This document shows positions 5,475-43,394 of a stretch of 64,000 nt of DNA, one piece after another (position 1 is the first letter of the stretch; the number at the start of each line of letters is the position of its first letter). Under the pieces are notes generated by a model. It saw only the letters and a program-made list of their open reading frames with translations. It did not search any database and was not told the origin of the DNA. Origin of the DNA: a candidate division FCPU426 bacterium (GTDB taxonomy: Bacteria > Oederibacteriota > Muellerivitia > Muellerivitales > Muellerivitaceae); contig CAVRAL010000004.1 of NCBI GenBank assembly GCA_963719085.1, positions 736,001 to 800,000 on the forward strand. Direction: 5' to 3'. Position numbers and translations under genes: made by a program.

Positions 5475-6074
5475 TTACTTGCTCGATCCAGTCACCGAAA
5501 CTCCCGAAGCGGCCGGGGTCGTCGCCGCCAAGGGCGCGCTCGGCGCGGCGGATGGAGGCTGCAGGGGCGCGAAAATACGGGCCGCGCGGGCCTGCCAGTT
5601 TTTATTCCGGTTCACAATAACTCCGAAGAAATGAAAGCTAGCCGGTTGCGCCGCGGTGCCGTCCGGCGCGGTCATGCCGGTCAAGGTCGCGGTCGCGTCC
5701 ACCAAGTACATGTTCGGCATAATATAGGTGAAGGAGAAATCGCTGAAGGACTGCTGGGTTCCCTTCAAGGGGCCCGTCAAATCACCCGTAATGACCTGCA
5801 ACACGCCGTCATGGCCCTGGCCCTGCTGGCCCATGGGATTGATCAAGGTCGCGTCGGACGTGAAATAGGAAGCCACCGTATTCGCGTCGCCCGCGTTCCA
5901 AGCTTTCGCCAATCCATTAAAGGCTTTTTTAATCGCCTGTTCGTCGCCGGCACCCGTGTCTTTTTTCTTTTTAACCAGCGCGGAAGCGGCCGGGCTCGTC
6001 GTGGGAGTATTTTGGGCGTAAAGGGTTGAAGTAAAGCCAATCGCCAGCAAGAGAATGAATAACTTCTTCACCAT
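5475..6074 (-). CDS. Secreted NTF2-like (SgcJ/EcaC, DUF4440-type) protein
   Basis: Signal peptide MVKKLFILLLAIGF; AWNAGDA...FTSDATLINPMG...G pattern; TTGACA-N18-CATAAT promoter upstream on the minus strand. Confidence 0.7.
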   Translation of the reverse strand: MVKKLFILLLAIGFTSTLYAQNTPTTSPAASALVKKKKDTGAGDEQAIKKAFNGLAKAWNAGDANTVASYFTSDATLINPMGQQGQGHDGVLQVITGDLTGPLKGTQQSFSDFSFTYIMPNMYLVDATATLTGMTAPDGTAAQPASFHFFGVIVNRNKNWQARAARIFAPLQPPSAAPSAPLAATTPAASGVSVTGSSK

Positions 6075-8608: not shown

Positions 8609-9817
8609 TTAGTTGCTGAACTGGGCTTTGACCGCGAGGAACTTTTCAATGTTGTTCAAGAAAGCTTGAACAATTTTGGGGTCAAAATGGCGGCCGCTTC
8701 CCTCTTTGATGATATCCAGGGACTGTTCCAGCGGAAAAGCCGGTTTGTAGCAGCGTTTGGACGTGAGGGCGTCAAACACGTCCGCCAGCGCCACGATGCG
8801 GCCCGACAAGGGAATATTTTCGCCTTTCAGCCCGCGCGGATATCCGCTTCCATCCCATTTTTCATGATGCGTGAAGGCGATCTGCTCCGAAACCCGCAAC
8901 AAATCCGCTTTGGCGTTTTCCAAAATTTTCGCCCCGAAGATCGTGTGATTTTGCATTTCCTTGAATTCTTGGGGCGTCAGTTTTCCTGGTTTCATCAGGA
9001 TGGAGTCGGGCACACCGAGTTTCCCAATGTCATGCATGGGCGAGGCGTATTGGATGCTTTCCACTTCCGCCTTCGATAACCCCAACCCTTCGGCCAAGAT
9101 GGAAGAATAGCGGCTCATGCGATGAATGTGGGCCGCCGTATCGTCGTCTTTATATTCGGCGGCGACGGACAGGCGGAAGATGGTATCCAGATAAGCTTCT
9201 TTGAGTTCCTGGGTTAAAAGGGCGTTGCGGATAGCGATCGCCGCCTGGCTGGCCAAGGACAACACCAAATTCTCAAAATGTTTATCAAAGGGAATGATGG
9301 TTTTTTTCTTGCGCGCGTTGATGAGCTGGATCACGCCCACCACCTTGCCGTGGGCGTCCTTCATGGGAACGATCAACATGCTTTTGGTTCGGTAGTTATT
9401 TTTTTCGTCGAAGGAACGGTTGAAACGGTATTCCCGGGCGGAAGGAATTTTATAAGCGTCCGGAATGTTCAGCGTTTTTCCCGTGACCCCGACATAACCG
9501 GCCAGCGAGCTTTTATCCAGGGAGATATAAAACCCCGTGAAGGTGGCCGGAACCACTTCCAGCGGTTTTTTTAATTTTTTAAGCTCGGCCTTTTTTCGCT
9601 CTTCCATGACTTCGTTTTGGCTGACCGCGAAGCGCAATTGCTCGCCTTCGCGCACATAAAGGCTTCCCGCCTCCGCTCCGGTAAAATTACGGCTCTCATT
9701 TAAGATCAGGGTGAGAAGCTGATTGAGATTATTTTCTTGGGTGAGGGCGATACCGATTTTATTCAACGCGAGCAATTGCTCTTGAAGGTTGTTGACGCTC
9801 ATTTGGGCTTTAGGCAT
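8609..9817 (-). CDS. GAF + HD-GYP cyclic dinucleotide phosphodiesterase
   Basis: GAF (YRTKSMLIVPM, GVIQLIN); MHDIGK, HHEKWDGSGYP, ADVFDALTSKRCYK; AAGGA RBS before ATG 9817. Confidence 0.9.
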   Translation of the reverse strand: MPKAQMSVNNLQEQLLALNKIGIALTQENNLNQLLTLILNESRNFTGAEAGSLYVREGEQLRFAVSQNEVMEERKKAELKKLKKPLEVVPATFTGFYISLDKSSLAGYVGVTGKTLNIPDAYKIPSAREYRFNRSFDEKNNYRTKSMLIVPMKDAHGKVVGVIQLINARKKKTIIPFDKHFENLVLSLASQAAIAIRNALLTQELKEAYLDTIFRLSVAAEYKDDDTAAHIHRMSRYSSILAEGLGLSKAEVESIQYASPMHDIGKLGVPDSILMKPGKLTPQEFKEMQNHTIFGAKILENAKADLLRVSEQIAFTHHEKWDGSGYPRGLKGENIPLSGRIVALADVFDALTSKRCYKPAFPLEQSLDIIKEGSGRHFDPKIVQAFLNNIEKFLAVKAQFSN

Positions 9818-9925
9818 ACGGGTTTCCTTGCGTAAGTTCGAGGAATCAAGATACCTTGAAAAGTGGGCCATTTACAAGGGCCATGGAGACCGAAAAAGGC
9901 CGGGAGAAACCGGTTAAAAGCGCTT

Positions 9926-10366
9926 CTAGCCCTTCGAAAGGAGCCGGTTGATTTTGCCCCGAACCTTCGGGGGAATGGGCCTGGATTTAAGATCCAAGGT
10001 GTTCACGAACACCAAAACCTGACGGGCGTCCGCGATAAGCCGGTAAGATCCCTTAAGGCGGAAGTCATAACCAATCGTGATGGAGCTTCTGCCCATTTTT
10101 TCCACCCAGCCGGTGCCCAAAAGAATGTCCTCAAATCGGGCCGGCGAGACGTAATTGATTTCCACATGGGCCATCACGGTCCAAAGCTTGGCCGAACGGA
10201 CTTGTTTGAAGGAAAACCCGAGCTTTTTCGATAACTCATACCGAACCCGTTCCAAAAATCGGATGAATTCGGTGTTATTGACGATGCCCTGGTAATCCGT
10301 CTCAAAAGACATGATGGGCATCGCGACGGTGAGCTGGGTTTTATTTTTGGAGGTCCCTTTGGCCAT
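9926..10366 (-). CDS. Acyl-CoA thioesterase (YbgC/FadM hot-dog fold)
   Basis: ETDYQGIVNNTEFIRFLERVR motif. Confidence 0.85.
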   Translation of the reverse strand: MAKGTSKNKTQLTVAMPIMSFETDYQGIVNNTEFIRFLERVRYELSKKLGFSFKQVRSAKLWTVMAHVEINYVSPARFEDILLGTGWVEKMGRSSITIGYDFRLKGSYRLIADARQVLVFVNTLDLKSRPIPPKVRGKINRLLSKG

Positions 10367-14993: not shown

Positions 14994-16385
14994 TTAGAAG
15001 GAAGAGGAATGCCGGTCCGTTAGGTTTTTCTTAAGATTGGAAACTTCCGCCAACAAAGTGGCGTCGGTCTGGCACAAATCGTCGATTTTCTCGTAAGCGT
15101 GGATGATGGTCGTATGGTCTTTTCCCCCGAAGGCGGCTCCGATTTCGGTCAAGGAGTGCGCGGTAAGTTCCCGGGTGAGATACATGGCGATCTGACGGGG
15201 AAAAGCGATTTGCTTCGTGCGTTTCTTTGATTTCATATCGGAAAACTTGCAGTTATACCTTTCGGCCACCAATCGTTGGATGGTGTCCACCGAGATGCGT
15301 TTTTCCTCATTGGGAAGGGCGTCTTTAAGGACTTCTTTTACCAGCTCAAGCGTGATCTCTTGGCGGGTCAAGGATGCGAAAGCGATGACCCGGAGCATGG
15401 AACCTTCCAGCTCGCGGATATTGGCTTTGACATGATGGGCGATGAACAAGGTGACCTCATTGGGCACCAAGATTCCCTCGCTTTCGGCTTTTTTACGGAG
15501 GATGGCGATCCGGGTTTCAAGGTCCGGTTCTTGGATATCGGTGATCAACCCCATCTCAAAACGGTTGCGAAGCCGTTCTTCCAAGCGAATTTCCTTGGGA
15601 TGGCTGTCTGAAGTGGCCACGATTTGCTTTTGCTCCTCATAGAGCACGTTGAAGGTATGGAAAAACTCTTCTTGGGTGGCTTCCTTGCCTTCCCAAAATT
15701 GGATGTCATCAATCAAGAGCACGTCGACGGTTCGGTATTTGTTCCTGAAATCCTGCTGCCGGCCGGATTGAATGGATTGGATGAAGTCATTCATGAACTT
15801 CTCAGATGAGATATAGAGAACCTTAATATTGGGGTTTTGCTCGACCACGTAATTGCCGATGGCTTGAAGTAAGTGGGTTTTTCCAAGGCCGACTCCCCCG
15901 TATATAAAAAGAGGGTTGTAAGAGCGGGCGGGCGCCTCCGCGACAGCCAAACAAGCCGCGTGGGCGAACCGATTGCTGTTGCCGACGACAAAACTCTCAA
16001 AATTAAACTTGCCGTTGAGGATAATTTCAGAATCCGAAGAAACCCGGCTGGGGCTCGGCATGGTCAAGGTTGGCTTTTCGATAACTTCCAGGGTGGAAGG
16101 GGCGGCCACCGAAGCCCTTGCGGGGCTTTCGGGGGAAGCGTTTTGGATCTCAAATTGGATTTCCAATTGAACCGGATGGACTAGTTTGAGGGCCTTTTGA
16201 ATTTGGGGCTGGTAATGGTCCCGGATCCAGTCACGGAAAAACTCGTTGGGAACCTTGATTTGAAGGGTCTTCTCGTCCAATAAGGAAGCCTGCGTTGCCT
16301 TAAACCAGGTCTCGTAGCTCTGGCGGTTTAAGTCTTTTTTGAGGTTTTCGAGACAAAGACCCCATACATCCACTGGACCAGTCAT
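14994..16385 (-). CDS. dnaA: Chromosomal replication initiator DnaA
   Basis: YNPLFIYGGVGLGKTHL, LLIDDIQF, NIRELEG, FGGKDHTTIIHA; GGGAGG RBS 7 nt before ATG 16385. Confidence 0.98.
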   Translation of the reverse strand: MTGPVDVWGLCLENLKKDLNRQSYETWFKATQASLLDEKTLQIKVPNEFFRDWIRDHYQPQIQKALKLVHPVQLEIQFEIQNASPESPARASVAAPSTLEVIEKPTLTMPSPSRVSSDSEIILNGKFNFESFVVGNSNRFAHAACLAVAEAPARSYNPLFIYGGVGLGKTHLLQAIGNYVVEQNPNIKVLYISSEKFMNDFIQSIQSGRQQDFRNKYRTVDVLLIDDIQFWEGKEATQEEFFHTFNVLYEEQKQIVATSDSHPKEIRLEERLRNRFEMGLITDIQEPDLETRIAILRKKAESEGILVPNEVTLFIAHHVKANIRELEGSMLRVIAFASLTRQEITLELVKEVLKDALPNEEKRISVDTIQRLVAERYNCKFSDMKSKKRTKQIAFPRQIAMYLTRELTAHSLTEIGAAFGGKDHTTIIHAYEKIDDLCQTDATLLAEVSNLKKNLTDRHSSSF

Positions 16386-16932
16386 CCACAAACCTCCCGA
16401 ACGTTAAAAGACATTTAAAACCAACAAAAAGGGGCGAAATGAGATCGGCTGCGAATTTATCCCCTGTTTATCCCCAGTTTATGGGGAGAGCTCTTGAGCA
16501 CTAAATCAAACCAGCGTGGTAAGGATTGGTAAATCAGTTATTCACAATTGTGTATGGTTTGTGGATAACCCAACCGGTGGTAGAAAGCCCAGTCAAAAAA
16601 GAGTTTTTGAAATTTTTGGTCTTTCGGTTTTTAAAAATTTTTAATTTCGATTTTTTGAAGCGGCCAAAAAAGCTTATCGTTTAAGGCTTTTTCGAGTGAT
16701 TCAAAAAGTCATGCACAGATTATCCACGTATCCACAAGTTCGGCGCTTCGGGAGTTGAGTTTTTGGATTTGATTTTCAGTTTCGTCCAAAAATTTTCGAA
16801 ATCGTGATTTGCTTCTCTCTATTTAAATCTTTTTCCAGCGAAGTCAAGAAAATTATCGGGATTTTAAAATTCTTTTTTTAAAAATTTTCTATTGAATCCA
16901 AAAATATTTTTTTAACTTTTTACCGCCGCTCA
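16386..16932. other. oriC/dnaA-promoter sub-region with DnaA-box cluster and AT-rich tract
   Basis: TGTGGATAA 16560-16568 (perfect), TTATTCACA 16538-16546, TTATCCCCA 16468-16476, TTATCCACG 16720-16728, GTATCCACA 16728-16736, TCATGCACA 16709-16717; very AT-rich ~16800-16930. Confidence 0.85.
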
Positions 16933-26282: not shown

Positions 26283-26298
26283 TGTTCCACGTGGAACA
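26283..26298. promoter_or_regulatory. parS: parS centromere-like site
   Basis: Perfect palindrome TGTTCCACGTGGAACA. Confidence 0.93.
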
Positions 26299-29083: not shown

Positions 29084-29099
29084 TGTTCCACGTGGAACA
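29084..29099. promoter_or_regulatory. parS: parS centromere-like site
   Basis: Perfect palindrome TGTTCCACGTGGAACA, identical to 26283-26298. Confidence 0.93.
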
Positions 29100-29382
29100 C
29101 CTGACTTGAGGCCTTTTTAAATATGCCCAATTTATTATTCAATTTTTTTAAAAGCCATTTTAAAATAGGGTGAAAAGCCCGAATTAAAAAATGAAAAACC
29201 CTCTTTGAAAGTTTATAATAAGCGGGCTTTAAATGAACGATCCCGCTTATTAATAGGAAGAGGCCCATCGGGACATTTGAGGCCTTCTAGAGGGCTTTTA
29301 AACGCTCTTCAGCGAGGAACAGACGACGATACCCTTCGTTAAGTCGCAAGAACACTATTCTTAAATAAGCAGGGGTTAAGGT

Positions 29383-30501
29383 GTGCATGTTGGTTCCATT
29401 CGGCTTTCCCAGTTTCGCAATTACACCTCGTTGGAGGTTCGATTCCATTCCCGGTTGAATCTTCTTTTGGGAATGAACGCTCAAGGTAAGACCAGTCTTT
29501 TAGAAGCGCTTTACTGTCTTTCCGCCGCCCGGTCTTTTCGGGCCGGTGTGGATGATGAAATGATTCAATTCGGCCACGAGACCGCCGGCATTGAAGGCGT
29601 GATTCATCGGGAGAAGGGCCAAGATCAGGTTTTTTTGGAACTGAAAAAGAGCAAAGGAAAAACACTCACCCTTAACGGGAAGAAGCAAAAAAAGCTTTCA
29701 ACTCTTTTGGGACAAATGCCGGCGGTGGTTTTTTCCCCGGACGACCTTTTCCTGGTTAAGGGCGCTCCCGGGCTTCGGCGAAAGTACTTAGACCTGACGA
29801 TTCTTCAGTTGGAACCGGGGTTTCTTCCCCACTTCCAGCTTTATGAGCGGGCCTTAAAACAGCGTAACGCTTTGCTTCGGCAAAGGATGGAAAACTTAGA
29901 AACCCAACTGCCGCTTTGGGACGCGCCTCTGGCGGAGCATGGCGCGGCGATTCTTCGAAAGCGGTTGGAGATAAGCCAAGGCCTCTCTGTTTTAGCGGGC
30001 CGGGCCTTGGGCGATTTGACGGGTGGGCTTGAAAAATTTGAGCTGCGGTATGAAAGTTCGCTGCTAAGCGCTGAAAAAACAGAAGTCACGAAAGAACAAA
30101 TGCTTCAAGCCTTTGGAAGGGCCCGCAAAGAAGAGATCGCGCGGGGCCTCACCGTGGTCGGGCCGCATCGGGACGATATCGGTTTTTTCGTGAACGGCGA
30201 GCTTTTAAGAAAATTTGGAAGCCAAGGACAGCAACGCACCGCGGCCCTGGCCTTGAAACTGGCCCAGTTGTCGCTTTTAGCCGAGGGCTGCCACACGGAG
30301 CCGCTGGTTTTATTTGACGACGTGATGTCGGAGCTGGACGAGAAACGACAGGCTTTTTTTTTGAACCGGCTTCAACGGGGGGGGCAGGCTTTTTTAACTG
30401 GGACCTCCGCCCACGATTTCGCCGCGGCGGCGCAGGGCGCCCGGGTGTTTACGGTCGAAGAGGGCCAGGTGAAGATGGTTCAGGAAGGTCCAGTCCCTTG
30501 A
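29383..30501 (+). CDS. recF: DNA replication/repair protein RecF
   Basis: FRNY, GMNAQGKT, GPHRDD, GSQGQQRT, DDVMSELD. Confidence 0.97.
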   Translation: MHVGSIRLSQFRNYTSLEVRFHSRLNLLLGMNAQGKTSLLEALYCLSAARSFRAGVDDEMIQFGHETAGIEGVIHREKGQDQVFLELKKSKGKTLTLNGKKQKKLSTLLGQMPAVVFSPDDLFLVKGAPGLRRKYLDLTILQLEPGFLPHFQLYERALKQRNALLRQRMENLETQLPLWDAPLAEHGAAILRKRLEISQGLSVLAGRALGDLTGGLEKFELRYESSLLSAEKTEVTKEQMLQAFGRARKEEIARGLTVVGPHRDDIGFFVNGELLRKFGSQGQQRTAALALKLAQLSLLAEGCHTEPLVLFDDVMSELDEKRQAFFLNRLQRGGQAFLTGTSAHDFAAAAQGARVFTVEEGQVKMVQEGPVP

Positions 30502-30533: not shown

Positions 30534-33457
<2,924 letters not shown>

Positions 33458-33465
33458 GGAATCGT

Positions 33466-36036
33466 ATGGCCCGGCTTAAAAAGAAAAAACAAAAGCAAGA
33501 GCTTCCCGAAGACAACGGTAAAAACGGCGTCCCGCCCCTGAACGGCGGCGCCGCTCCCTTAGCCGGAGCCGCGGGCGGCGACGGCGGCGACATCAATCGC
33601 GGCAACATCGTCATGACGGATATTGAGGATGAGATGAAGGATTCTTACCTCGATTACGCCATGAGCGTCATCGTGGGCCGCGCGCTTCCCGATGTGCGGG
33701 ACGGTTTAAAGCCGGTCCATCGCCGCATCTTCATGGGGTTGCATGACCTGGGACTGACGTCCCGCAAGCCTTACCGCAAATCCGCCAAAGTCACCGGTGA
33801 CGTGACGGGGAACTATCACCCGCATGGAACCGCCTCGGTTTACGATTCCATCGTCCGTTTGGCCCAAGACTTTTCCATGCGCTATCCCTTGGTGGACGGC
33901 CAGGGAAACTTTGGCTCCATCGACGGAGATCCGCCGGCGGCCGAACGTTACACCGAAGTCCGCATGTCGCCCTTGGCCGAGGAAATGCTGCGCGACATCG
34001 ACAAGAACACGGTCGACTTCGTCCCCAACTATGACAATACCCGGGAAGAGCCGATTGTCTTGCCCAGCGCTTTCCCCAACTTTTTGGTCAACGGCGCGCA
34101 GGGCATCGCGGTCGGGATGGCCACCAACGTCCCCCCGCACAACCTCACTGAAGTCATCGACGGGCTTGTCCACCTGATTGAAAACCCCCAAGCCACCGTG
34201 AAGGACTTGATTCAATTCATCAAGGGGCCGGACTTTCCGACCGGGGGTTACATTTTAGGGCGCGAAGGGCTTCTGGAGGCCTATAACACGGGCCGCGGCA
34301 GTGTGCGCATGCAGGCGAAAGCTTCCATTGAAGTGGATAAAAAAGACCGCGAACGCATCATCGTGTCCCAATTGCCGTTCCAAGTGAACAAGGCGCAGCT
34401 GATTGAAAAAATCGCGGAACTGGTCCGCGACAAAAAGATGGAAGGCATCACGGACCTGAGGGACGAATCCGACCGCGAGGGCATGCGGATTGTGATTGAG
34501 GTTTCCAAAAACTTCAACGGCCAAGTAGTCCTTAACAACTTACTGACCCACACCTCGCTTCGAACCTCCTTTGGCATCATCATGCTGGCCTTGGTCAACG
34601 GCCAGCCCCGGGTGCTGAACCTGAAGGGCTTGTTGTTCCATTACCTGGAACACCGAAAAGAAGTGGTCATCCGCCGCACCAAGTTCGATTTGGACAAAGC
34701 CGAGAAGCGCGCCCATATCTTGGAAGGACTGCGCATCGCCGTCGATAACCTGGATAAAATCATCAAGACGATCCGGGCCTCTAAAAATACCGAGGAAGCC
34801 AAGAACGCCCTTATTGCGGGCTTCAAGCTGTCGGCGATCCAGGCCCAAGCGATCCTCGAAATGCAGCTCCGTCAATTAACGAATCTGGAAATCAAAAAAA
34901 TTGAGGAAGAATATCTTGAGATCATCAAGACCATTGAGCGCTTGAAAGGCATCCTGGCTTCTGAAAAGAAGCTTTGGCAGGTCATCAAGGAAGAGTTGAT
35001 CGACATTAGGACCCGCTTCGGCGACGCCCGGCGCACCGAGATTATCGGCAAGGCCGAGGACATTAAAGTGGAGGATTTGATCGAGGACGAGCAAGTCGTC
35101 ATCACCCTTTCCCACGCGGGCTATATCAAGCGTCTGCCGGCCGACAGCTATCAAAAGCAGCGGCGCGGCGGTAAAGGCGTGGCGGGCGCCACGGTGCGGG
35201 AAGAGGATTTTATCGAGCGCATGTATACGGCCTCGACCCATGATTACCTGCTGGGGTTCACCAATTTCGGCAAGGTCCATTGGATCAAGGTTTACGAGAT
35301 TCCCGAATCGTCCCGTTACGCCAAGGGGACGGCTTTGGCCAATATTCTCAAGCTCGATGAGCATGAGAAAATCTCGGCGGTCCTTCCGGTGAAGGAATTC
35401 ACCGAAAAACTCAGTGTGATGATGGGAACGGCGAACGGACTCATTAAAAAAACCCTTCTGACGGCTTTCGATAAGCCCCGGGCGGGCGGTATTATCGCTA
35501 TCACCCTGGATAAGGGCGACTCGCTGGTGTCGGCCCACATCACGGACGGAAAACAAGATTTGTTCCTCGCCACCAAGCAGGGCAAAAGCATCCGCTTCCA
35601 AGAAAAGCAGGTGAGGGAAGTGGGGCGCGCCGGCAAGGGCGTCCGGGGGATTAAACTGGGTAAGGGTGATTTGGTCATCGGAATGGAAATTGTCCGGGAC
35701 TCGAAGTCGCTGTTGACCTCTACCGAGAAGGGTTTCGGCAAACGAACCAAGCTCAGCGCCTACCGGCGCCAGGGCCGGGGCGGCAAAGGTATTTTGAACA
35801 TTAAAACCACTTCCAAAAATGGAATGGCCGTCAGTATCGTGGTGGTGGGGGATGAGGATGAGATTATCGCCATGACCGCTTCCGGGAAAGTGATCCGTCA
35901 GCGGGTGAAAGAAATCAAGGGAACCGGCCGTTTGGCCCAGGGTGTTCGGCTCATTAAGATGTCCGACGATGACCGCTTGGTTTCCGTGGTGAATGTGCCG
36001 GAAGAGACAAACGAAGGAGAACCGGGTGAAAAGTAA
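33466..36036 (+). CDS. gyrA: DNA gyrase subunit A
   Basis: RDGLKPVHRR, YHPHG, AAERYTE, GyrA box QRRGGKG. Confidence 0.98.
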   Translation: MARLKKKKQKQELPEDNGKNGVPPLNGGAAPLAGAAGGDGGDINRGNIVMTDIEDEMKDSYLDYAMSVIVGRALPDVRDGLKPVHRRIFMGLHDLGLTSRKPYRKSAKVTGDVTGNYHPHGTASVYDSIVRLAQDFSMRYPLVDGQGNFGSIDGDPPAAERYTEVRMSPLAEEMLRDIDKNTVDFVPNYDNTREEPIVLPSAFPNFLVNGAQGIAVGMATNVPPHNLTEVIDGLVHLIENPQATVKDLIQFIKGPDFPTGGYILGREGLLEAYNTGRGSVRMQAKASIEVDKKDRERIIVSQLPFQVNKAQLIEKIAELVRDKKMEGITDLRDESDREGMRIVIEVSKNFNGQVVLNNLLTHTSLRTSFGIIMLALVNGQPRVLNLKGLLFHYLEHRKEVVIRRTKFDLDKAEKRAHILEGLRIAVDNLDKIIKTIRASKNTEEAKNALIAGFKLSAIQAQAILEMQLRQLTNLEIKKIEEEYLEIIKTIERLKGILASEKKLWQVIKEELIDIRTRFGDARRTEIIGKAEDIKVEDLIEDEQVVITLSHAGYIKRLPADSYQKQRRGGKGVAGATVREEDFIERMYTASTHDYLLGFTNFGKVHWIKVYEIPESSRYAKGTALANILKLDEHEKISAVLPVKEFTEKLSVMMGTANGLIKKTLLTAFDKPRAGGIIAITLDKGDSLVSAHITDGKQDLFLATKQGKSIRFQEKQVREVGRAGKGVRGIKLGKGDLVIGMEIVRDSKSLLTSTEKGFGKRTKLSAYRRQGRGGKGILNIKTTSKNGMAVSIVVVGDEDEIIAMTASGKVIRQRVKEIKGTGRLAQGVRLIKMSDDDRLVSVVNVPEETNEGEPGEK

Positions 36037-39000
36037 GTATTTTCAAGTTTTCTTACTGATAGGTCTGATTCCGCTGTTGGCTTTGGCGGGGGTTTACGCT
36101 TGGTCGATTTTGAGCGAACCGCCCAAGGGGCCGACGGCGGCCGCGCCTTCGGCGGGTCCGGCGCTCAATCCGGCCACGGTTCAAACCGAAATCAGCACGG
36201 TCTCGTCCTCGCTTTATAACGACTTGAAGAAAACCCACGATGACACGACCACCTTGCTTCAGCATCACGCGGACGCGGACCTCACGACTTTCGTGCAGTC
36301 CCATCCGGGGGTCAGCGGAATCTTGGTGGTTTCTTTGGACGGGAAAAATCTTCGGTCCGTTCCGGCGGTTCCTTCGCTCACGGATCTTTCTTACGGGTCT
36401 TCGGATGAGTTCAAAAGCGTCTTGGATCATTTAAAGAGCGAGCCGGGCGGGATTTACCAGTTTTACACCTCAAAGTTCACCAATCCCTCCTTTGTCTTCG
36501 CCTTGGATTTGTCCGCGGCTTCGGCCGGGGAAGTGGTTTTTGATCTTTCGACCTTGTTTAAGGGCATGAATCTTCATGGCGGCGAAGCTTATATCTTGGA
36601 TGGAAAATCGGGCCAATATCTTTACGCCACCAATCCTTCCCGTTATTCGCAAACTTTTAATACCGCGCAAAGCCCGGCCTTGACCAAGGTCCAAACCGAC
36701 CTTTCGGCGCAGACCGCCGGCATCGCCCAGGGCACGACAACCACTCTTATTTATACCCCGTTCCTCAATTCCTATGGACTGGTGGAAGAAATTCCCCAAA
36801 CCGCCTTTACCGCCCCCGCGGCCGCGCGCGCCGAAGAGGAAACCAGCCCGCTTGAACAGCTGCAAACCCCCGTGACGCTGGCCGCGGTCGTGGCCTTGGC
36901 CTGGGTCTTTTTGATGTTTTATGTGGGGCTGGGACTTTTACTGACGCCTTTGAAAAAAGCCCGGGCCGCGATTTTGGCCGCGGTACAAAGCGGAAAATCC
37001 ATCGGCCCGGATACGCTGGGGCAATTCGGCAAAGACGAAGTGGGACAGATCGTTCAAGCGGCTTCCGATCTTTTAAAGAAGCTGGAATCCGAAAAAACCG
37101 AGTTGGAACGGGATAAAGAAGAAGCCATCCGCCAGGCCCGCGCCTTGATTGAGAATAAAAACAAGGAAGCCCAGCAGATTCAACAGCAGGCCGACGGGGT
37201 GAAGAAAAATCTGGAAGACACCACCCAGCAGCTCAATGACAAGTTAAAAGAATTGGACGCCCTCAAAGGCATGGCCGAGGGGTTGCGCGGTCAAACCGAG
37301 CAGTCCAAAGCCGATAACGCCAAATTGAAGGCGCAGGTTTCGGGATTGGAAACCTCCCAAGCGGACGTTCAAAAAAAATTAGCCGCCGCCGAAAACAAGA
37401 TTAAAGAAACCGAAGCCAAGCTTTTACAAGCCCTGTCCACCGCTTCGCCCCTGCAGGTTTCCCAAGTCCGTTCCGCCGCCATCAAGACCATGGCGGAAGA
37501 ACTCAAGACCACCTTGGGCATCATCAAGGGTTACGTTTCTTCCGCCTTGGGCGCCACCCAAGGCGGGATCAACGAGAAGCAGCAAGAATTTTTGGGAATG
37601 GTCATCAACCGAAGCGCGCGGCTGGAAAAGTTCATCAACGATCTTTTGGATATTTACCAGGTCGAGATTGAGCAGGAAGAGGCGAAGACCGAGGAAGTCA
37701 ACCTGCCCGCCGAAATTGAGGGATTGGCCTTCAACTTCCAAGCCCAAGCCGAGGTCAAAAACATCAAGATCAAGGTGGAGGGGAAACCCAACTTGCCCAA
37801 GGTGCCCATCGTTCGCCGCCGCTTCAATCAGTTGTGGAATATTCTTTACCTGCAAACCATCAAGGACGCGCCCCGGGGTTCCACGATTTCCATTTCCCTG
37901 GAGCCTTTGGGCGAAATGGTCAAGGTTTCGGTCATCGACCCGGGCTTGATCGTCAAACCTGAAAGCCTTCCCAAGTTATTCGATGAGTTTTATGACCCGA
38001 AACATCCGGCTTCGACCCAATTGGCGGGAACGGGCTTAAAATTCGCGCTCATTAAAACCATTTTGGCCGCCCATGGCGGAGGCGCGGTGGCGGAGGCCGC
38101 TGATCCGGGCACCAATCTCATTTTAACCTTCCCGACTAAGCGAAAAGTTCCCGGCGCGGTTTCTCCCGTGGTAAGCGTTACGCCCGCTTCGCCGGCGCCT
38201 GCCGCTCCCGCGGCGGCTAAACCCTTCACCGTCGCGGGGGTTACACCCAGACCTACCGCGCCTTTAGGGCCGGTCCCCGGTCTTGCCGCCAAACCAGCCG
38301 TAGTCGCGCCAACCACTCCCGCTACGCCCAGACCCCTAGGCCCGACGCCGACGGTTGCCCCGTCGGGGCAGATCCCTGGCGCGCCTGTGGCTAGGCCCCC
38401 GGTTACTCCTGGAGTTTTAGATTCGTTGTTATCAGGCAATGTGCCACCCGCGGGCACGGTCCCCGTAGGGGGACCCAAGCCTTCACCCACGGCTTCTATT
38501 CCCCCAGCCGGGACTCCGCCTGCCGCCGCGCCTCCGGTTACTCCCAAGCCCCCAGTGGGGACTTCACCCGCGGCGACTCCGTCAGCGGTAACGCCCAGCT
38601 CCATTGACGCACTTCTCTCGGCGAAGATAGCCTCCGTTTCCGCCACGCCCGTGCCGCCTGGGGGGACAGCGCCCGCGGCGCCTAAACCGCCTATCAGCGC
38701 CGCGCCGAGTGTTCCGAGCGCGCCTTCTCCCCTAGGGACCGCGCCCGCCGCGCCCAGGCCGCCAATGCCCGCTGGAGGAACCGCCCCAGTCGCGCCACGA
38801 CCGCCCATGCCCCCTGCGGGGACTATGCCCCCCGGAATGACGCCGCCCGGAAATTTGCCGCCGATGGGGACTCCGCCTCCTATGGGAGCGCCGAAACCTC
38901 CAATGCCCGGCATGCCGCCATCACCGGGTGTGCCTCGTCCTCCAGTGCCCCCAGGGGCGACCGCGCCTGGGGCTCCCCGACCGCCAATGCCGCCCGGGAC

Positions 39001-39352
39001 GATGCCCTCTGCGGGGACTGTGCCAGGCGTGCCTCGTCCTCCCATGCCCCCGGGAATGCCGCCCTCCGGGGCTCCTGCCATGGGCGCCCCGCGGCCGCCG
39101 TCAGTTCCGGGAGTTCCACCGCCAGCGGGGATTCCGCCAAGGCCAGCCGCGCCGGTCGTTGTCCCGACGTCGATTAAACCAACGGCGCCGCCCGAAGGCA
39201 TTTTGGATTTAGATAATTTGGATAGTTTCAAAGTGGACGATGGATCTAAACCGCCCTTGCCCAAGCCTCCGGTTCCGCCTCCGGGGACCATGCCTACGAT
39301 GGATAAACCCATCGTGAAGAACAAAGACGGCGAAGGCGAAATCATTGAGTGA
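36026..39352 (+). CDS. Membrane pseudo-histidine kinase (sensor domain, HAMP, coiled coil, degenerate DHp/CA) with proline-rich C-terminal tail
   Basis: Two TM helices, HAMP-like DEVGQI, H-box MAEELKTTL lacking His, DPGLIV, LFDEFY, GTGLKF; GTG start with AAGGAG RBS inside the gyrA 3' end. Confidence 0.75.
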   Translation: MKSKYFQVFLLIGLIPLLALAGVYAWSILSEPPKGPTAAAPSAGPALNPATVQTEISTVSSSLYNDLKKTHDDTTTLLQHHADADLTTFVQSHPGVSGILVVSLDGKNLRSVPAVPSLTDLSYGSSDEFKSVLDHLKSEPGGIYQFYTSKFTNPSFVFALDLSAASAGEVVFDLSTLFKGMNLHGGEAYILDGKSGQYLYATNPSRYSQTFNTAQSPALTKVQTDLSAQTAGIAQGTTTTLIYTPFLNSYGLVEEIPQTAFTAPAAARAEEETSPLEQLQTPVTLAAVVALAWVFLMFYVGLGLLLTPLKKARAAILAAVQSGKSIGPDTLGQFGKDEVGQIVQAASDLLKKLESEKTELERDKEEAIRQARALIENKNKEAQQIQQQADGVKKNLEDTTQQLNDKLKELDALKGMAEGLRGQTEQSKADNAKLKAQVSGLETSQADVQKKLAAAENKIKETEAKLLQALSTASPLQVSQVRSAAIKTMAEELKTTLGIIKGYVSSALGATQGGINEKQQEFLGMVINRSARLEKFINDLLDIYQVEIEQEEAKTEEVNLPAEIEGLAFNFQAQAEVKNIKIKVEGKPNLPKVPIVRRRFNQLWNILYLQTIKDAPRGSTISISLEPLGEMVKVSVIDPGLIVKPESLPKLFDEFYDPKHPASTQLAGTGLKFALIKTILAAHGGGAVAEAADPGTNLILTFPTKRKVPGAVSPVVSVTPASPAPAAPAAAKPFTVAGVTPRPTAPLGPVPGLAAKPAVVAPTTPATPRPLGPTPTVAPSGQIPGAPVARPPVTPGVLDSLLSGNVPPAGTVPVGGPKPSPTASIPPAGTPPAAAPPVTPKPPVGTSPAATPSAVTPSSIDALLSAKIASVSATPVPPGGTAPAAPKPPISAAPSVPSAPSPLGTAPAAPRPPMPAGGTAPVAPRPPMPPAGTMPPGMTPPGNLPPMGTPPPMGAPKPPMPGMPPSPGVPRPPVPPGATAPGAPRPPMPPGTMPSAGTVPGVPRPPMPPGMPPSGAPAMGAPRPPSVPGVPPPAGIPPRPAAPVVVPTSIKPTAPPEGILDLDNLDSFKVDDGSKPPLPKPPVPPPGTMPTMDKPIVKNKDGEGEIIE

Positions 39353-40586: not shown

Positions 40587-40616
40587 CTTGACATGAAGTG
40601 ACTAATATTATATATT
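40587..40616 (+). promoter_or_regulatory. Sigma70 promoter overlapped by a HAIR-like (HspR) operator
   Basis: TTGACA(40588)-N17-TATATT(40611); CTTGACA-N7-ACTAATA (40587-40607) vs HAIR CTTGAGT-N7-ACTCAAG. Confidence 0.6.
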
Positions 40617-40670
40617 TATCTCATTAAAGAAAAAGTGAAAGAATAATAAGGTTCGTCAAGGAGATTGAAA

Positions 40671-41522
40671 ATGGAAAAACTACCCTTTTTCAGTGAAGAA
40701 AAATCACTGGGAACTTATCTCAAAGAAATCGCCCGGGTCTCGCTTTTGACGCCCGAGCAGGAAAAAGAACTCAGCCGCGCCGCCCAAAAGGGCGATGAGA
40801 AGGCTTTGACTCAATTGATCGAGGCCAATCTGCGCTTCGTGGTCTCGGTGGCCAAGGGCTACCGCAACCGGGGACTTTCATTCTTGGATCTCATTAATGA
40901 AGGCAACCTGGGGCTGATGAAGGCCGCCCGCACCTTTGATCCGGCGCGGGGTGTTCGGTTTGTCTCCTACGCGGTTTGGTGGATCCGTCAGTCGATTTTG
41001 GCGGCGATTCTGGACAAGGGCGATATCGTCCGGATTCCCCAAAGCCAAACGAAAAAGATCCGCAAGATCAACAAGCGCATGGCCGAGCTTCAGCAAAAAG
41101 CCGGGGAAGAAATGAGCGACGTGGAAGTCATGAAAAAAGCCGATATTGACCGCAAGACGCTCAGCGAAGTGCGGCAATTCAGCCATGGCTACCTTTCGCT
41201 GGATACCACCAAGGTGGGGGACAGCGAAACGCCGATCCTTGATTTTTTAAAGGACCCGCGCGATCAGGATTCCTTCGAGAAGCAATTGATGGATCAAGAC
41301 CTGACCGGCAAATTGACGGGGCTTTTGAAGACCCTGGATCCGCGCGACGCCAAGATTTTGTCCTGGCGCTATGGTTTGGACGGCCAGGGAAGCCGGACCT
41401 TGGATGAGATCGGAAAAAGCTTGAGCATCTCCAAGGAACGGGTCCGCCAAATTGAGGAACGGGCCATGAAAAAAATCCGCGGCGTCGAGGGCGTGGAAGA
41501 GCTCCGGGATTACGTCGCCTAA
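40671..41522 (+). CDS. RpoD/SigA-family sigma factor lacking region 1.1
   Basis: YLKEI, ANLRFVVSVAK, DLINEGNLGL, YAVWWIRQ, SKERVRQIE. Confidence 0.92.
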   Translation: MEKLPFFSEEKSLGTYLKEIARVSLLTPEQEKELSRAAQKGDEKALTQLIEANLRFVVSVAKGYRNRGLSFLDLINEGNLGLMKAARTFDPARGVRFVSYAVWWIRQSILAAILDKGDIVRIPQSQTKKIRKINKRMAELQQKAGEEMSDVEVMKKADIDRKTLSEVRQFSHGYLSLDTTKVGDSETPILDFLKDPRDQDSFEKQLMDQDLTGKLTGLLKTLDPRDAKILSWRYGLDGQGSRTLDEIGKSLSISKERVRQIEERAMKKIRGVEGVEELRDYVA

Positions 41523-41523
41523 T

Positions 41524-41868
41524 ATGGATCTCTCGCCCGAACATCCGGTTTATACCATCAGTGTGGTCGCCCATCTTTTGGGCGTCCACGAGCAAACCCT
41601 TCGGCAATACGAGCGGTTAGGGCTCGTTTCGCCCTGCCGCACGCTGCGCCGGACCCGCATGTATTCGAAGGCCGATGTTGAGCTCTTGGAATCCATCAAT
41701 TATTTGGTGAAAATTTGCGGGGTCAACCTGGCGGGGGTCAAAATTGTGGTCACCCTTTGCACCCATCACCCCGACCTGGATCGTCTATTAAGGCAGAGGG
41801 AAATTTCCCCGGATACCATCCGGCAGAAATTGAGTGAGTTAAATCAGCTAAAGGATGAGCCACTATGA
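41524..41868 (+). CDS. hspR: MerR-family regulator, HspR-like
   Basis: PVYTISVVAHLLGVHEQTLRQYERLGL and GVNLAGV signature. Confidence 0.75.
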   Translation: MDLSPEHPVYTISVVAHLLGVHEQTLRQYERLGLVSPCRTLRRTRMYSKADVELLESINYLVKICGVNLAGVKIVVTLCTHHPDLDRLLRQREISPDTIRQKLSELNQLKDEPL

Positions 41869-43394
41869 AAAATCTTTTTATTTTTAAAAGCTTCACCAAG
41901 CCCTTTCCCGCCGCGCTTTTAGCGCTCTGCTTAACCGCGGGCACTGTCGTCCCGGCCCAAGCCCTTAACTTAATGGAGCCCCAAGAAGCGCCGGTGAAGC
42001 TGGGGCCCAATAACGCGGCTTTGGCTTTGCAAAACGCTTTCATCGATGTGGCGGCTTCCGTGAGCCCGGCGGTGGTCAACATCAGCTCTGAATGGACGGA
42101 AGACGTGCAGGGGCTGGGCCAGTTCGGCAATATGAACGACCTGTGGCGCTATTTTTTTAACGGGCCCAACGGCAACGGCGGACAAGTTCCCGAATATAAA
42201 CAAAAGCAACGAAGCCTGGGATCGGGCTTTATTGTCACGTCCGACGGCACGATCGTGACCAATGCCCACGTGGTAGGAAAAGCCGAGAAGGTCACGGTGA
42301 CTTTTGAGAACGGAACCACTTATCCCGCCAAAATTATCGGAAAAGACTTAAAGACCGATATCGCGGTCATTAAGATTACCGACGCCAGTAAAACCTTTCC
42401 CACAGTGGTCTTAGGCGACTCGGATCAACTGAAGGTCGGGGAGTGGGCGATCGCCATCGGCAATCCCTTCGCCTTGGACCACACGGTCACCACCGGGGTC
42501 ATCTCCGCCAAAGGACGTAGTGTGGAGGTCAGCGAGAATGGAGCGGCGCAAAGCTATATCCAAACCGACGCTTCCATCAATCCCGGCAACTCCGGGGGCC
42601 CGCTTTGTAATATTCAAGGCGAAGTCATCGGCATCAATAGCGCCATCTACAGCCAGTCCGGCGGTTCGATCGGCATTGGATTCGCCATCCCGATTAATAT
42701 CGCCAAAAAGGTGGCGGATGATTTGGTGAATAACGGCAAGGTGATCCGCGCCGGGCTCGGCGCCGTGGTGCAATCTTTAAACCCGCAGATCGCGAAAAGT
42801 TTTGGGCTGGCTTCCACCCAAGGAGCGCTTATTTCCAGCGTGAATCCGGGCAGCGCCGCTGAAAAAGCCGGGTTAAAACCGGGGGATATCATTCTGGATC
42901 TGGATGGCCAAACGATTGATAGTTCCAACGATTTGGTGACCAAGCTTTATACCTTCGCCCCCGGCCAAGTGGTTCAACTGACCGTGCTTCGCAACGGAAC
43001 CCAAAGCGAGATGGCGGCCACCCTGCAAACCCTCAGTGACACCGCGGCCGGGCCGGGTTCCGCCGGGGGGGATAATTCCGAAGATTCCACCGCTCCGGCG
43101 GATTCGGGCCAAACCTTGGGGCTTTCCTTCCAAGACCAGACCCCTGACATTCAACAGCAATTGCCCAAGGGCGCCCCGAAAGGTCCGGTGGTGATGGGCA
43201 TCGATCAAGATAGCCCGGCGGCCGCTTCCGGCCTCCAACCCGGCGATGTTATCTTGAAGGTGAACAATACGACGGTCACTACCGCCGACCAGTTGTCGGC
43301 AGTGCTTAAAAAATCCGACCTGAAAAGCGGAGTCCGGCTTTTTGTTTGGCGCGGTGGATCCACCCTCTATAGTTTTTTACAAGACGGTGATTAA
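41865..43394 (+). CDS. degP: HtrA/DegP (Do family) serine protease with two PDZ domains
   Basis: GSGFIV, TNAHVV, DIAVIK, QTDASINPGNSGGPL; signal peptide. Confidence 0.92.
   Translation: MKNLFIFKSFTKPFPAALLALCLTAGTVVPAQALNLMEPQEAPVKLGPNNAALALQNAFIDVAASVSPAVVNISSEWTEDVQGLGQFGNMNDLWRYFFNGPNGNGGQVPEYKQKQRSLGSGFIVTSDGTIVTNAHVVGKAEKVTVTFENGTTYPAKIIGKDLKTDIAVIKITDASKTFPTVVLGDSDQLKVGEWAIAIGNPFALDHTVTTGVISAKGRSVEVSENGAAQSYIQTDASINPGNSGGPLCNIQGEVIGINSAIYSQSGGSIGIGFAIPINIAKKVADDLVNNGKVIRAGLGAVVQSLNPQIAKSFGLASTQGALISSVNPGSAAEKAGLKPGDIILDLDGQTIDSSNDLVTKLYTFAPGQVVQLTVLRNGTQSEMAATLQTLSDTAAGPGSAGGDNSEDSTAPADSGQTLGLSFQDQTPDIQQQLPKGAPKGPVVMGIDQDSPAAASGLQPGDVILKVNNTTVTTADQLSAVLKKSDLKSGVRLFVWRGGSTLYSFLQDGD

Follow-up and report, generated by a model that had tools for sequence, protein, structure and literature searches.

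A kinase-dead dCache sensor with a proline-rich tail, encoded directly behind gyrA in an uncultured bacterial lineage

Few pseudo-histidine kinases have been studied, among them DivL, PsmA and an evolved ChrS. For DivL of Caulobacter crescentus, the part of the original report that concerns us describes a protein without kinase activity whose dimerization and histidine phosphotransfer (DHp) surface binds a phosphorylated response regulator (PMC4211667). Streptomyces PsmA is a conserved HisKA-like protein lacking the phospho-acceptor His; in S. venezuelae it has Glu at that position and acts through contacts with DivIVA; PsmA proteins may have E, D, Q, V or Y there and are without a D/E-x-x-T/N element (PMC12963549). 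Here we describe a gene from a candidate division FCPU426 bacterium, found in a 64,000-nucleotide stretch (the window; contig CAVRAL010000004.1 of assembly GCA_963719085.1, positions 736,001 to 800,000), whose coordinates are used throughout. The gene (36026..39352, + strand, as are all features within it) runs from a GTG start to a TGA stop at 39350-39352 and encodes a 1108-aa kinase-dead sensor. In this system the kinase-dead state is fixed across a whole lineage, with only acidic residues in place of the His. No other part of the protein is as well conserved as the dead core, which is followed by a probable docking tail, and the gene stands behind gyrA. Full-text literature searches turned up no paper describing this family, nor one reporting a kinase-like gene that follows gyrA.

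Alignment to solved kinases locates the degenerate positions. In phmmer comparisons with Protein Data Bank (PDB) sequences, the stretch MAEELKTTL falls on ISHELRTPL of HK853, so that Glu491 (37496..37498) occupies the position of the phospho-acceptor His260, and the region from aa 311 to 551 contains no His at all. Four residues on, Thr495 (37508..37510) takes the place of the T/N in the HisKA E/D-x-x-T/N phosphatase element. Gln610 (37853-37855) lies on the Mg-binding Asn of the N-box in the CusS alignment; the HK853 alignment has a 3-residue gap across N379-N380-G381, and either register is without an Asn. The G1 box, D638-P-G-L-I-V (37937-37954), aligns to DNGIGI of HK853, with D638 and G640 retained and the second Gly gone, and the G2 box, G668-T-G-L-K-F (38027-38044), aligns to GTGLGL, with G668 and G670 retained and Lys (K672) as the third Gly. 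A preliminary description of this DNA had already noted the Glu at 37496-37498, the absent N-box Asn and the degenerate G2 box, and all three stand, the first by the HK853 alignment, the second in the CusS and HK853 registers alike and the third through the Lys found in 82/82 family members. It had also listed DPGLIV as a degenerate G1 box; the sequence is confirmed, but the deviation is little informative as a sign of decay because a working kinase, CusS, carries N-P-G-T-P-I there. With a carboxylate for the His, no other His in the DHp domain and no Mg-binding Asn, autophosphorylation at the canonical site should be impossible, judging from these residues.

These substitutions are shared by a whole family. 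A search of 5.8 billion clustered proteins yielded 84 family proteins, the window's own included, at 493-1529 bits and 41-100% identity; the next score was 129 bits. His is absent from its canonical position in every member (0/84), being replaced by Glu in 74 and Asp in 10, and a His in any DHp column occurs in 1/84, at a non-conserved position. The +1 residue is Glu in 84/84 (E492), +4 is Thr in 66 and Asn in 18, and +5, where Pro is canonical, is Thr in 84/84. The Asn position holds Gln throughout (84/84), G1 keeps the Asp638 position and its Gly in 83/83, G2 reads G-T-G-L-K in the 82/82 members with residues there, and the F-box is conserved. Mean identity of the 83 relatives to the window protein is 0.90 in the DHp domain and 0.78 in the catalytic and ATP-binding (CA) domain, against 0.39 in the sensor, 0.43 in the HAMP-like region, 0.51 in the coiled coil and 0.41 in the tail. 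Between the window and its closest locus (L001), Nei-Gojobori ratios of nonsynonymous to synonymous substitution (dN/dS) were 0.078 for aa 1-706, 0.006 for the DHp domain, 0.074 for the CA domain and 0.16 for the tail, with 0.047 for gyrA as a control. A FastTree phylogeny of 86 rows, from which the H-box columns were excluded and two truncated members dropped, has seven switches between Glu and Asp at the His position, to no other residue, and a single change between Thr and Asn at +4. Two checks proposed in the preliminary description are thereby answered: close and distant homologs are all without the His, the Asn and the third G2 Gly, and the core is under strong constraint (dN/dS 0.078 overall, 0.006 in DHp). 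The pseudokinase state is thus fixed across the lineage and does not reflect the decay of one allele.

Loss of the His extends beyond this family. A profile from one alignment (A1), run against 1.84 billion representatives, matched 4,307 proteins at E<=1e-30, of which the best 150 were examined. Among these listed matches were 136 new representatives; 128 match the DHp-CA profile, with 85 having His, 40 lacking it and 3 gapped at that position, and every listed match above 306 bits that contains a DHp domain is His-less. The 40 include four fragments that come from the window's own family. The two groups agree at +1 (E or D in 40/40 His-less proteins; E in 83 and D in 2 of the 85 with His) and at the G1 Asp (39/39 and 85 of 85), but they differ elsewhere. 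The fifth G2 position is Arg in 32 and Lys in 6 of the 40 His-less proteins, against Gly in 84 and Ser in 1 of the His-bearing kinases; the Asn position is Q in 23, H in 8 and N in 6 (34/40 non-Asn), against N in 85/85; and at +4, 31 have Ala or Gly and 4 have T/N, against Thr in 79 of 85. At the His position itself the 40 are variable (E, S, T, G, V, A and others). Many His-less proteins have tails in which [DN]F[DE]x[IV]FG is repeated. The last residues of eleven resemble DE[IL]I[QE]E, a tip similar to that of the window protein. Since His-less representatives reach well beyond the window's family, the loss is old and widespread, whereas the strict carboxylate and the T/N at +4 set that family and a few others apart. 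A profile search from another alignment (A3) returned P0265 (its own first row), the relative P0378 and otherwise canonical kinases.

The protein has the layout of a receptor kinase with a long addition. It comprises a first transmembrane (TM) segment, a periplasmic dCache domain, a second TM segment, a HAMP-like linker, a coiled coil, the DHp and CA domains, and a Pro-rich tail of about 400 aa. TM1 (aa 4-29, 36035..36112) is the hydrophobic stretch KYFQVFLLIGLIPLLALAGVYAWSIL, an AlphaFold2 (AF2) helix at 4-29. The sensor (aa 45-262, 36158..36811) is modeled with a predicted local distance difference test (pLDDT) above 90 and finds dCache domains in Foldseek. TM2 (aa 282-310, 36869..36955), recognized by sequence, lies in an AF2 helix at 282-322. 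The linker (aa 311-360, 36956..37105; P-L...DEVGQ) is modeled as helix-connector-helix, and the coiled coil (aa 361-478, 37106..37459) as helices 338-413 and 427-471 with pLDDT<50 at 416-424. The DHp domain (aa 479-551, 37460..37678), the most conserved part of the protein, is recognized by Pfam HisKA (aa 483-545, 27.8 bits, cut-off 26.9), and the CA domain (aa 552-706, 37679..38143) by HATPase_c (aa 600-705, 41.3 bits), by alignment and by AF2. An island of the coiled coil at aa 401-435 (37226-37330, QQLNDKLKELDALKGMAEGLRGQTEQ) is nearly invariant (Q401...K435) and coincides with the helix break of low model confidence; it could be a hinge or a binding site.

Structure models agree with this layout. 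The AF2 model of aa 1-720, built from 55 sequences, has a mean pLDDT of 78, with values above 90 in the periplasmic and CA domains, and its elements run in the order TM1, alpha/beta domain, TM2, helix-connector-helix, long helix pair, DHp and CA. In the PDB it is matched best by WalK, CusS, HK853-RR468, RetS and DivL (E 1e-15 to 1e-11) and by GacS. Modeled separately, aa 40-290 reach pLDDT 88.8 and form a long N-terminal helix with two PAS-like modules. For this model Foldseek places the dCache ligand-binding domains of chemoreceptors and kinases on top (3lie, 6fu4, 5ltx, 5wbf, 3e4o; template modeling score 0.42-0.59; E about 1e-7 to 1e-6 for 3lie, 5ltx, 5wbf and 3e4o), and we take the extracytoplasmic sensor to be a predicted dCache fold. 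The layout given in the preliminary description, from TM segments through CA, is thus borne out by Pfam, AF2 and Foldseek, with the linker as a putative HAMP. The profile scan that it proposed gave a divided answer: HisKA and HATPase_c are found by Pfam, but dCache_1 (aa 74-230) stays under its cut-off at 23.9 against 45, and Pfam HAMP has no match in the window protein at E<=1. In the distant relative P0089 the equivalent region, aa 330-375, scores 23.7 bits with HAMP (cut-off 25). NCBIfam matches were all sub-threshold (PnpS, PhoR, VanS, WalK, heavy-metal kinases), and an ESM Atlas search with aa 1-710 found generic Cache/HAMP/HisKA kinases only.

The ends of the gene are set by its relatives. 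The + strand frame is open from 35993 to 39352, and we place the start at GTG 36026, preceded by GAAGGAG, because relatives begin M/V/L-K-S-K-Y. This start lies 11 nt inside gyrA, whose TAA stop is at 36034-36036, giving an overlap at 36026..36036. An overlapping start and an intact frame of about 1100 codons had both been described before, and the refined figures are the 11-nt overlap and 1108 codons. The end formerly given, 38150, delimits the kinase core only; the open reading frame (ORF) reaches 39352 and includes the Pro-rich tail. An antisense ORF over the tail (37990-39345, minus strand, 451 aa) was rejected because the + frame keeps a conserved C-terminus, and it is most likely an artifact of GC-rich Pro codons (GC 0.61).

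The cytoplasmic tail (aa 707-1108, 38144..39349) is probably disordered and ends in a conserved C-terminus; this C-terminus and the tail dN/dS of 0.16 given above confirm the reading frame, and aa 710-1108 are 32% Pro. It carries three related motifs, GVLDSLLSGNVP (aa 796-807, 38411..38446), SSIDALLSAKIA (aa 858-869, 38597..38632) and GILDLDNLDSFK (aa 1058-1069, 39197..39232), and an acidic-hydrophobic tip, GEGEIIE (39329..39349). Among relatives, tail length ranges from about 160 to 490 aa. Across the 80 tails of at least 150 aa, the pattern [ILVMF]D[AS][LIM][LIMF] is present in 76, with one copy in 22, two in 44 and three in 10 (mean 1.75 copies, against 0.006 in shuffled tails), in the context G-[ILV]-L-D-[SA]-L-[IL]-x-[GK]-K-x-P. 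A tip of the form [DEG][DE][LI][LI][EDQ] ends 71/80 tails, and the 9 exceptions look truncated. The motifs are short linear ones, conserved in an arm that otherwise changes fast and is probably disordered. A 42-bp tandem duplication (38734-38816; 2.0 copies, 78% matches) also lies in the tail.

The tail invites comparison with FliM-N/CheZ-type docking peptides for phosphorylated CheY, which likewise consist of a few acidic and hydrophobic residues carried on a flexible arm. CheY-P is bound by the FliM motif LSQXEIDALL, or 'EIDALL' (PMC6700473, PMC9126983), and the window protein has SSIDALLSA and GVLDSLLSG. The likeness spans 5-6 residues only, distant relatives use [DN]F[DE]x[IV]FG instead, and we treat it as an analogy and a lead rather than a claim of membership. 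Complex prediction for E. coli CheY, as a stand-in, with tail aa 785-885 scored 0.00, with controls not folded, and so speaks neither for nor against binding. No chemotaxis genes were found in the window, and an ESM Atlas search with the tail gave nothing usable.

We next compare the protein with described systems. With canonical HisKA kinases it shares the DHp domain (HisKA 27.8 vs 26.9 bits; the AF2 hairpin matches solved kinases), but it is without phospho-acceptor His, N-box Asn or an adjacent response regulator; L017, a locus from our genome scan without a family member, has such a pair. Its best sequence and fold matches are bifunctional kinases (HK853, EnvZ, CusS), led in phmmer by CusS at 68.9 bits (7zp0, 5e-18) and HK853 at 61.4 bits (1e-15). 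It has in common with them E-x-x-T/N, the F-box, the G1 Asp and part of G2, and unlike them it lacks the His, the Mg-binding Asn, the +5 Pro and an adjacent regulator, and has Lys in G2. The alphaproteobacterial DivL (PDB 4q20) scores lower in phmmer (45.8 bits; structural match E 1.9e-11). It shares the HisKA-type DHp and CA fold with a replaced His, but has Tyr at that position and cytoplasmic PAS sensors, where the window protein has Glu/Asp and a periplasmic dCache domain; DivL is not known to have a Pro-rich tail or a link to gyrA. The window protein is not a DivL ortholog, because CusS and HK853 outscore DivL and because the replacement residue and the sensor differ; by analogy, it would work most like DivL. 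PsmA is a hybrid with a receiver domain, and Pfam finds none in the window protein; unlike PsmA, the window's family is always acidic at the His position and has E-x-x-T/N in 84/84.

Because selection constrains the dead core more than any other part, we infer that DHp-CA is a binding or conformational module and not a kinase. The reading that we favor, though we stop just short of calling it probable, is a kinase-dead, ligand-gated module that would bind or dephosphorylate a response regulator encoded elsewhere and that would carry a docking tail; DivL and the phosphatase state of HisKA kinases serve as its precedents. Ligand binding by the periplasmic dCache domain would be relayed through the coiled coil and would change how the DHp/CA surface engages the phosphorylated regulator. 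The protein could sense or sequester that regulator, or could dephosphorylate it through the retained E-x-x-T/N, with the carboxylate in place of His acting as base. The 1-3 G-[ILV]-L-D-[SA]-L-[IL] motifs and the acidic-hydrophobic tip of the tail may form a flexible, multivalent docking arm. The sensor itself would be made as a late cistron of recF-dciA-gyrB-gyrA by way of the 11-nt stop/start overlap.

Several observations are consistent with this regulator-directed reading. The phosphatase-type DHp signature (E/D at +1, T/N at +4) is present throughout the family (E492 84/84, T/N 84/84), and the nucleotide site retains the adenine-binding Asp638 (83/83) and G668/G670 (82/82). In the relevant portion of one report, T/N at +4 of HisKA is required for phosphatase and not for kinase activity (PMC3510030); in that of another, the His as base enhances the HisKA phosphatase reaction and ADP stimulates it (PMC7005713). 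The His-less DHp-CA of DivL works as a sensor of the phosphorylated regulator DivK-P, as its report describes in the part concerned (PMC4211667). The preliminary description had called the protein a non-catalytic pseudokinase; pseudokinase holds (boxes in 84/84), whereas non-catalytic says too much for a protein that retains E-x-x-T/N, the G1 Asp and two G2 Gly. If the carboxylate and T/N do give a phosphatase-only sensor, nature would have provided, in this family, an experiment on the contested part that the His plays in the HisKA phosphatase reaction.

Other observations weigh against a regulator-directed function. No response regulator is near the gene: a receiver domain was found in none of the 66 scanned ORFs of the window, as the preliminary description had said, and a response regulator in none of 31 scanned downstream ORFs in 9 loci (of 48 listed, 11 others were named by tblastn and 6 distal ones left out), so the partner is hypothetical. 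DivL is without phosphatase activity in the sections of its report that bear on this (PMC4211667). ATP or ADP binding by the CA domain is putative, and the Pro at +5 is Thr in 84/84. The H-box of DivL is presumably canonical in other respects; if so, a protein that retains E-x-x-T/N need not be a phosphatase. In the His-less group of 40, most members (31) have Ala or Gly at +4, just 4 have T/N, and the residue at the His position differs from one to another; the ancestral function can therefore be explained neither by the carboxylate nor by the phosphatase element. The constraint on the core is itself measured roughly: synonymous sites are near saturation in the pair compared (dS 0.9-1.8), and more distant pairs are saturated and unreliable (pS 0.44-0.55).

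One alternative, which we consider unlikely, is that the protein modulates another histidine kinase, its DHp domain pairing with that of a genuine kinase and its dCache domain supplying a second input, in the style of RetS-GacS or ChrS-HrrS. RetS is a kinase-like sensor that blocks GacS through DHp contacts, its output being binding, and it matches our model structurally at E 2e-12; among the Foldseek matches are the kinase region of RetS and the DHp complex that it forms with GacS (6dk7, 6dk8, 7n0e). All faces of the DHp domain are conserved in the family, which would fit a helix-bundle interface. The pseudokinase ChrS heterodimerizes with HrrS, as part of its report describes (PMC9491836). 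Against such a role, neither the window nor the other loci have a second kinase gene linked to this one. RetS is presumably built differently, as a hybrid protein with receiver domains and another kind of periplasmic domain.

Gene order raises another possibility, put forward in the preliminary description, that the protein is a scaffold or sensor in the membrane whose function is bound up with gyrase, replication or segregation. The tail, which that description did not cover, would then recruit GyrA/GyrB, the beta-clamp or another chromosome factor and thereby couple envelope signals to DNA topology near oriC. The link to replication, segregation or the pole derives from gene order alone, and we regard it as doubtful. 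One scan of species-representative genomes gave 17 loci, of which 16 have a family member; L017 was rejected as a member, having an ordinary kinase/OmpR-type pair instead. In all 15 family loci with upstream DNA, gyrA is directly upstream (L012 starts inside the gene), so the linkage is, as had been proposed for checking, conserved in 15/15 loci of one lineage. The downstream genes differ by locus, among them a flippase-like protein, a HAD hydrolase, an alpha-galactosidase, an NHL protein and a thioesterase. Stop and start codons overlap at 8 of the 14 junctions that could be resolved, including those of relatives down to 44-49% identity; the spacing is -11 in the window, L001, L006, L007, L011, L013 and L015, and -4 in L014, and the 11-nt form persists in relatives only 44-54% identical. 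The junction of L003 is masked (an N run at about 5770-5870, ~34 X) and that of L016 fragmented. In further favor of a chromosomal role, the gene has oriC-type DnaA boxes, dnaA and dnaN as well as two parS-like sites at distances of 7-23 kb. Softer support comes from 16 pairs of GyrA and kinase-like clusters, the window's included, with an equal-sized longest contig; the most divergent pairs, P0084/P0158 and P0085/P0159, are among them.

Other results count against a tie to gyrase. GyrA relatives form a tight group at 74-98% identity; the next ones, with FCPU426 or Omnitrophota labels, reach no more than 63%. The whole block rsmG-recF-dciA-gyrB-gyrA is syntenic within this one uncultured lineage, so the position beside gyrA may simply have been inherited and need not reflect function, and the reshuffled downstream side beside a stable gyrA junction is only modest evidence for coupling. 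Six loci have 91-194-nt hairpin-rich inserts between gyrA and the sensor gene, and no known gyrase- or clamp-binding motif was recognized in the protein.

Two side observations concern this junction. The inserts of L002, L004, L005, L008, L009 and L010 lie exactly at the site of the 11-nt overlap of other relatives and contain long near-perfect inverted repeats (hairpin minimum free energy -25 to -73 kcal/mol); they look like small palindromic repeat elements or attenuators. P0087, a distant His-less relative (29% identity), and P0203, an out-of-lineage GyrA (61%), both have a longest contig of 39083 bp, a match which hints that the linkage to gyrA may extend beyond the lineage.

The wider His-less group suggests a bolder reading still. 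Given the dozens of related His-less clusters, kinase-like receptors that do not phosphorylate may be more numerous and more alike than one would expect from the known cases. We can imagine, as a speculation that is rather improbable as a whole, a large undescribed superfamily of His-less receptors, with Arg/Lys in G2, mostly no Asn and motif-bearing disordered tails, that would signal by ligand-gated multivalent recruitment at the membrane in place of phosphotransfer; here such a receptor would be hard-wired to gyrase expression by translational coupling and would link envelope sensing stoichiometrically to chromosome topology or replication.

We think it very unlikely that the protein is a phosphotransfer enzyme or ATPase with unusual chemistry, forming an acyl-phosphate on Glu/Asp or undergoing an ATP-driven conformational cycle. 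The carboxylate is strictly kept through seven E/D exchanges, the adenine-binding Asp, the first G1 Gly, two G2 Gly and the F-box are conserved, and the G1 form resembles that of active CusS; but none of the 84 members keeps the Mg-binding Asn, Lys has replaced the third G2 Gly, and distant relatives carry Ser, Thr, Gly, Val or Ala at the His position. A literature search on pseudokinases gave no precedent for glutamyl-phosphate in a DHp domain, and we know of none. That the gene is decaying, or its boxes an allele-specific accident, has next to no credence left: the HisKA and HATPase_c scores are low (27.8/41.3 bits) beside those of the canonical L017 kinase (55.3/85.0 bits), but 84/84 shared substitutions, a frame intact over 1108 codons, dN/dS far below 1 and a conserved C-terminal tip refute a pseudogene.

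Upstream of the sensor gene lie mnmG, rsmG, recF (29383-30501), a small dciA-like ORF (30534-30869; DciA family 28.6 bits vs 24), gyrB (30884-33457) and gyrA (33466-36036), the last four on the + strand and separated by gaps of 8-32 nt. A promoter-like site (10/12) lies at 29191-29219, and from recF to the sensor gene neither terminator-like (28 vs 22.1) nor promoter-like (7 vs 5.4) sites exceed shuffles. Co-transcription of the sensor gene with recF-dciA-gyrB-gyrA, suggested in the preliminary description as co-expression, is plausible from the 11-nt overlap, the spacing and the lack of a terminator-like excess.

Further off, dnaA and dnaN lie on the opposite strand at 13.5-16.4 kb. Six DnaA-box-like sites (<=1 mismatch) cluster at 16382-16736, five upstream of dnaA (14994-16391, minus strand) and one in its first codons; the whole window has 27 such sites against 8.5 expected, and the cluster is probably oriC. 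Two identical perfect palindromes, TGTTCCACGTGGAACA, stand at 26283-26298 (mnmE-mnmG spacer) and 29084-29099 (rsmG-recF spacer), each 2 mismatches from the parS-type consensus used (expected count 0.19). The proximity to oriC and parS claimed in the preliminary description is therefore matched by a DnaA-box cluster and two parS-like palindromes; no parA or parB was found in the window.

Downstream in the window are a flippase-like membrane protein, a sigma-32-like factor, HspR and HtrA. The genes for the last three (40665-43394) form a heat/envelope-stress block that is syntenic in L001, L004, L012 and L014, and a strong sigma-70-like site (11/12) at 40588-40616 lies just upstream of the sigma-32-like gene. 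Genes for a thioesterase and a GAF-HD (HD_5) protein form a pair 26 kb away in the window (8609-10366, minus strand); in L013 (8514-10181) the pair immediately follows the sensor gene, recording a rearrangement beside the conserved gyrA junction. The gyrase subunits have peculiarities of their own: GyrB is 857 aa long, and the gyrB model, of 639 positions, is matched over its aa 34-857, so that a large insertion is implied; the GyrA match begins at aa 48, implying an N-terminal extension.

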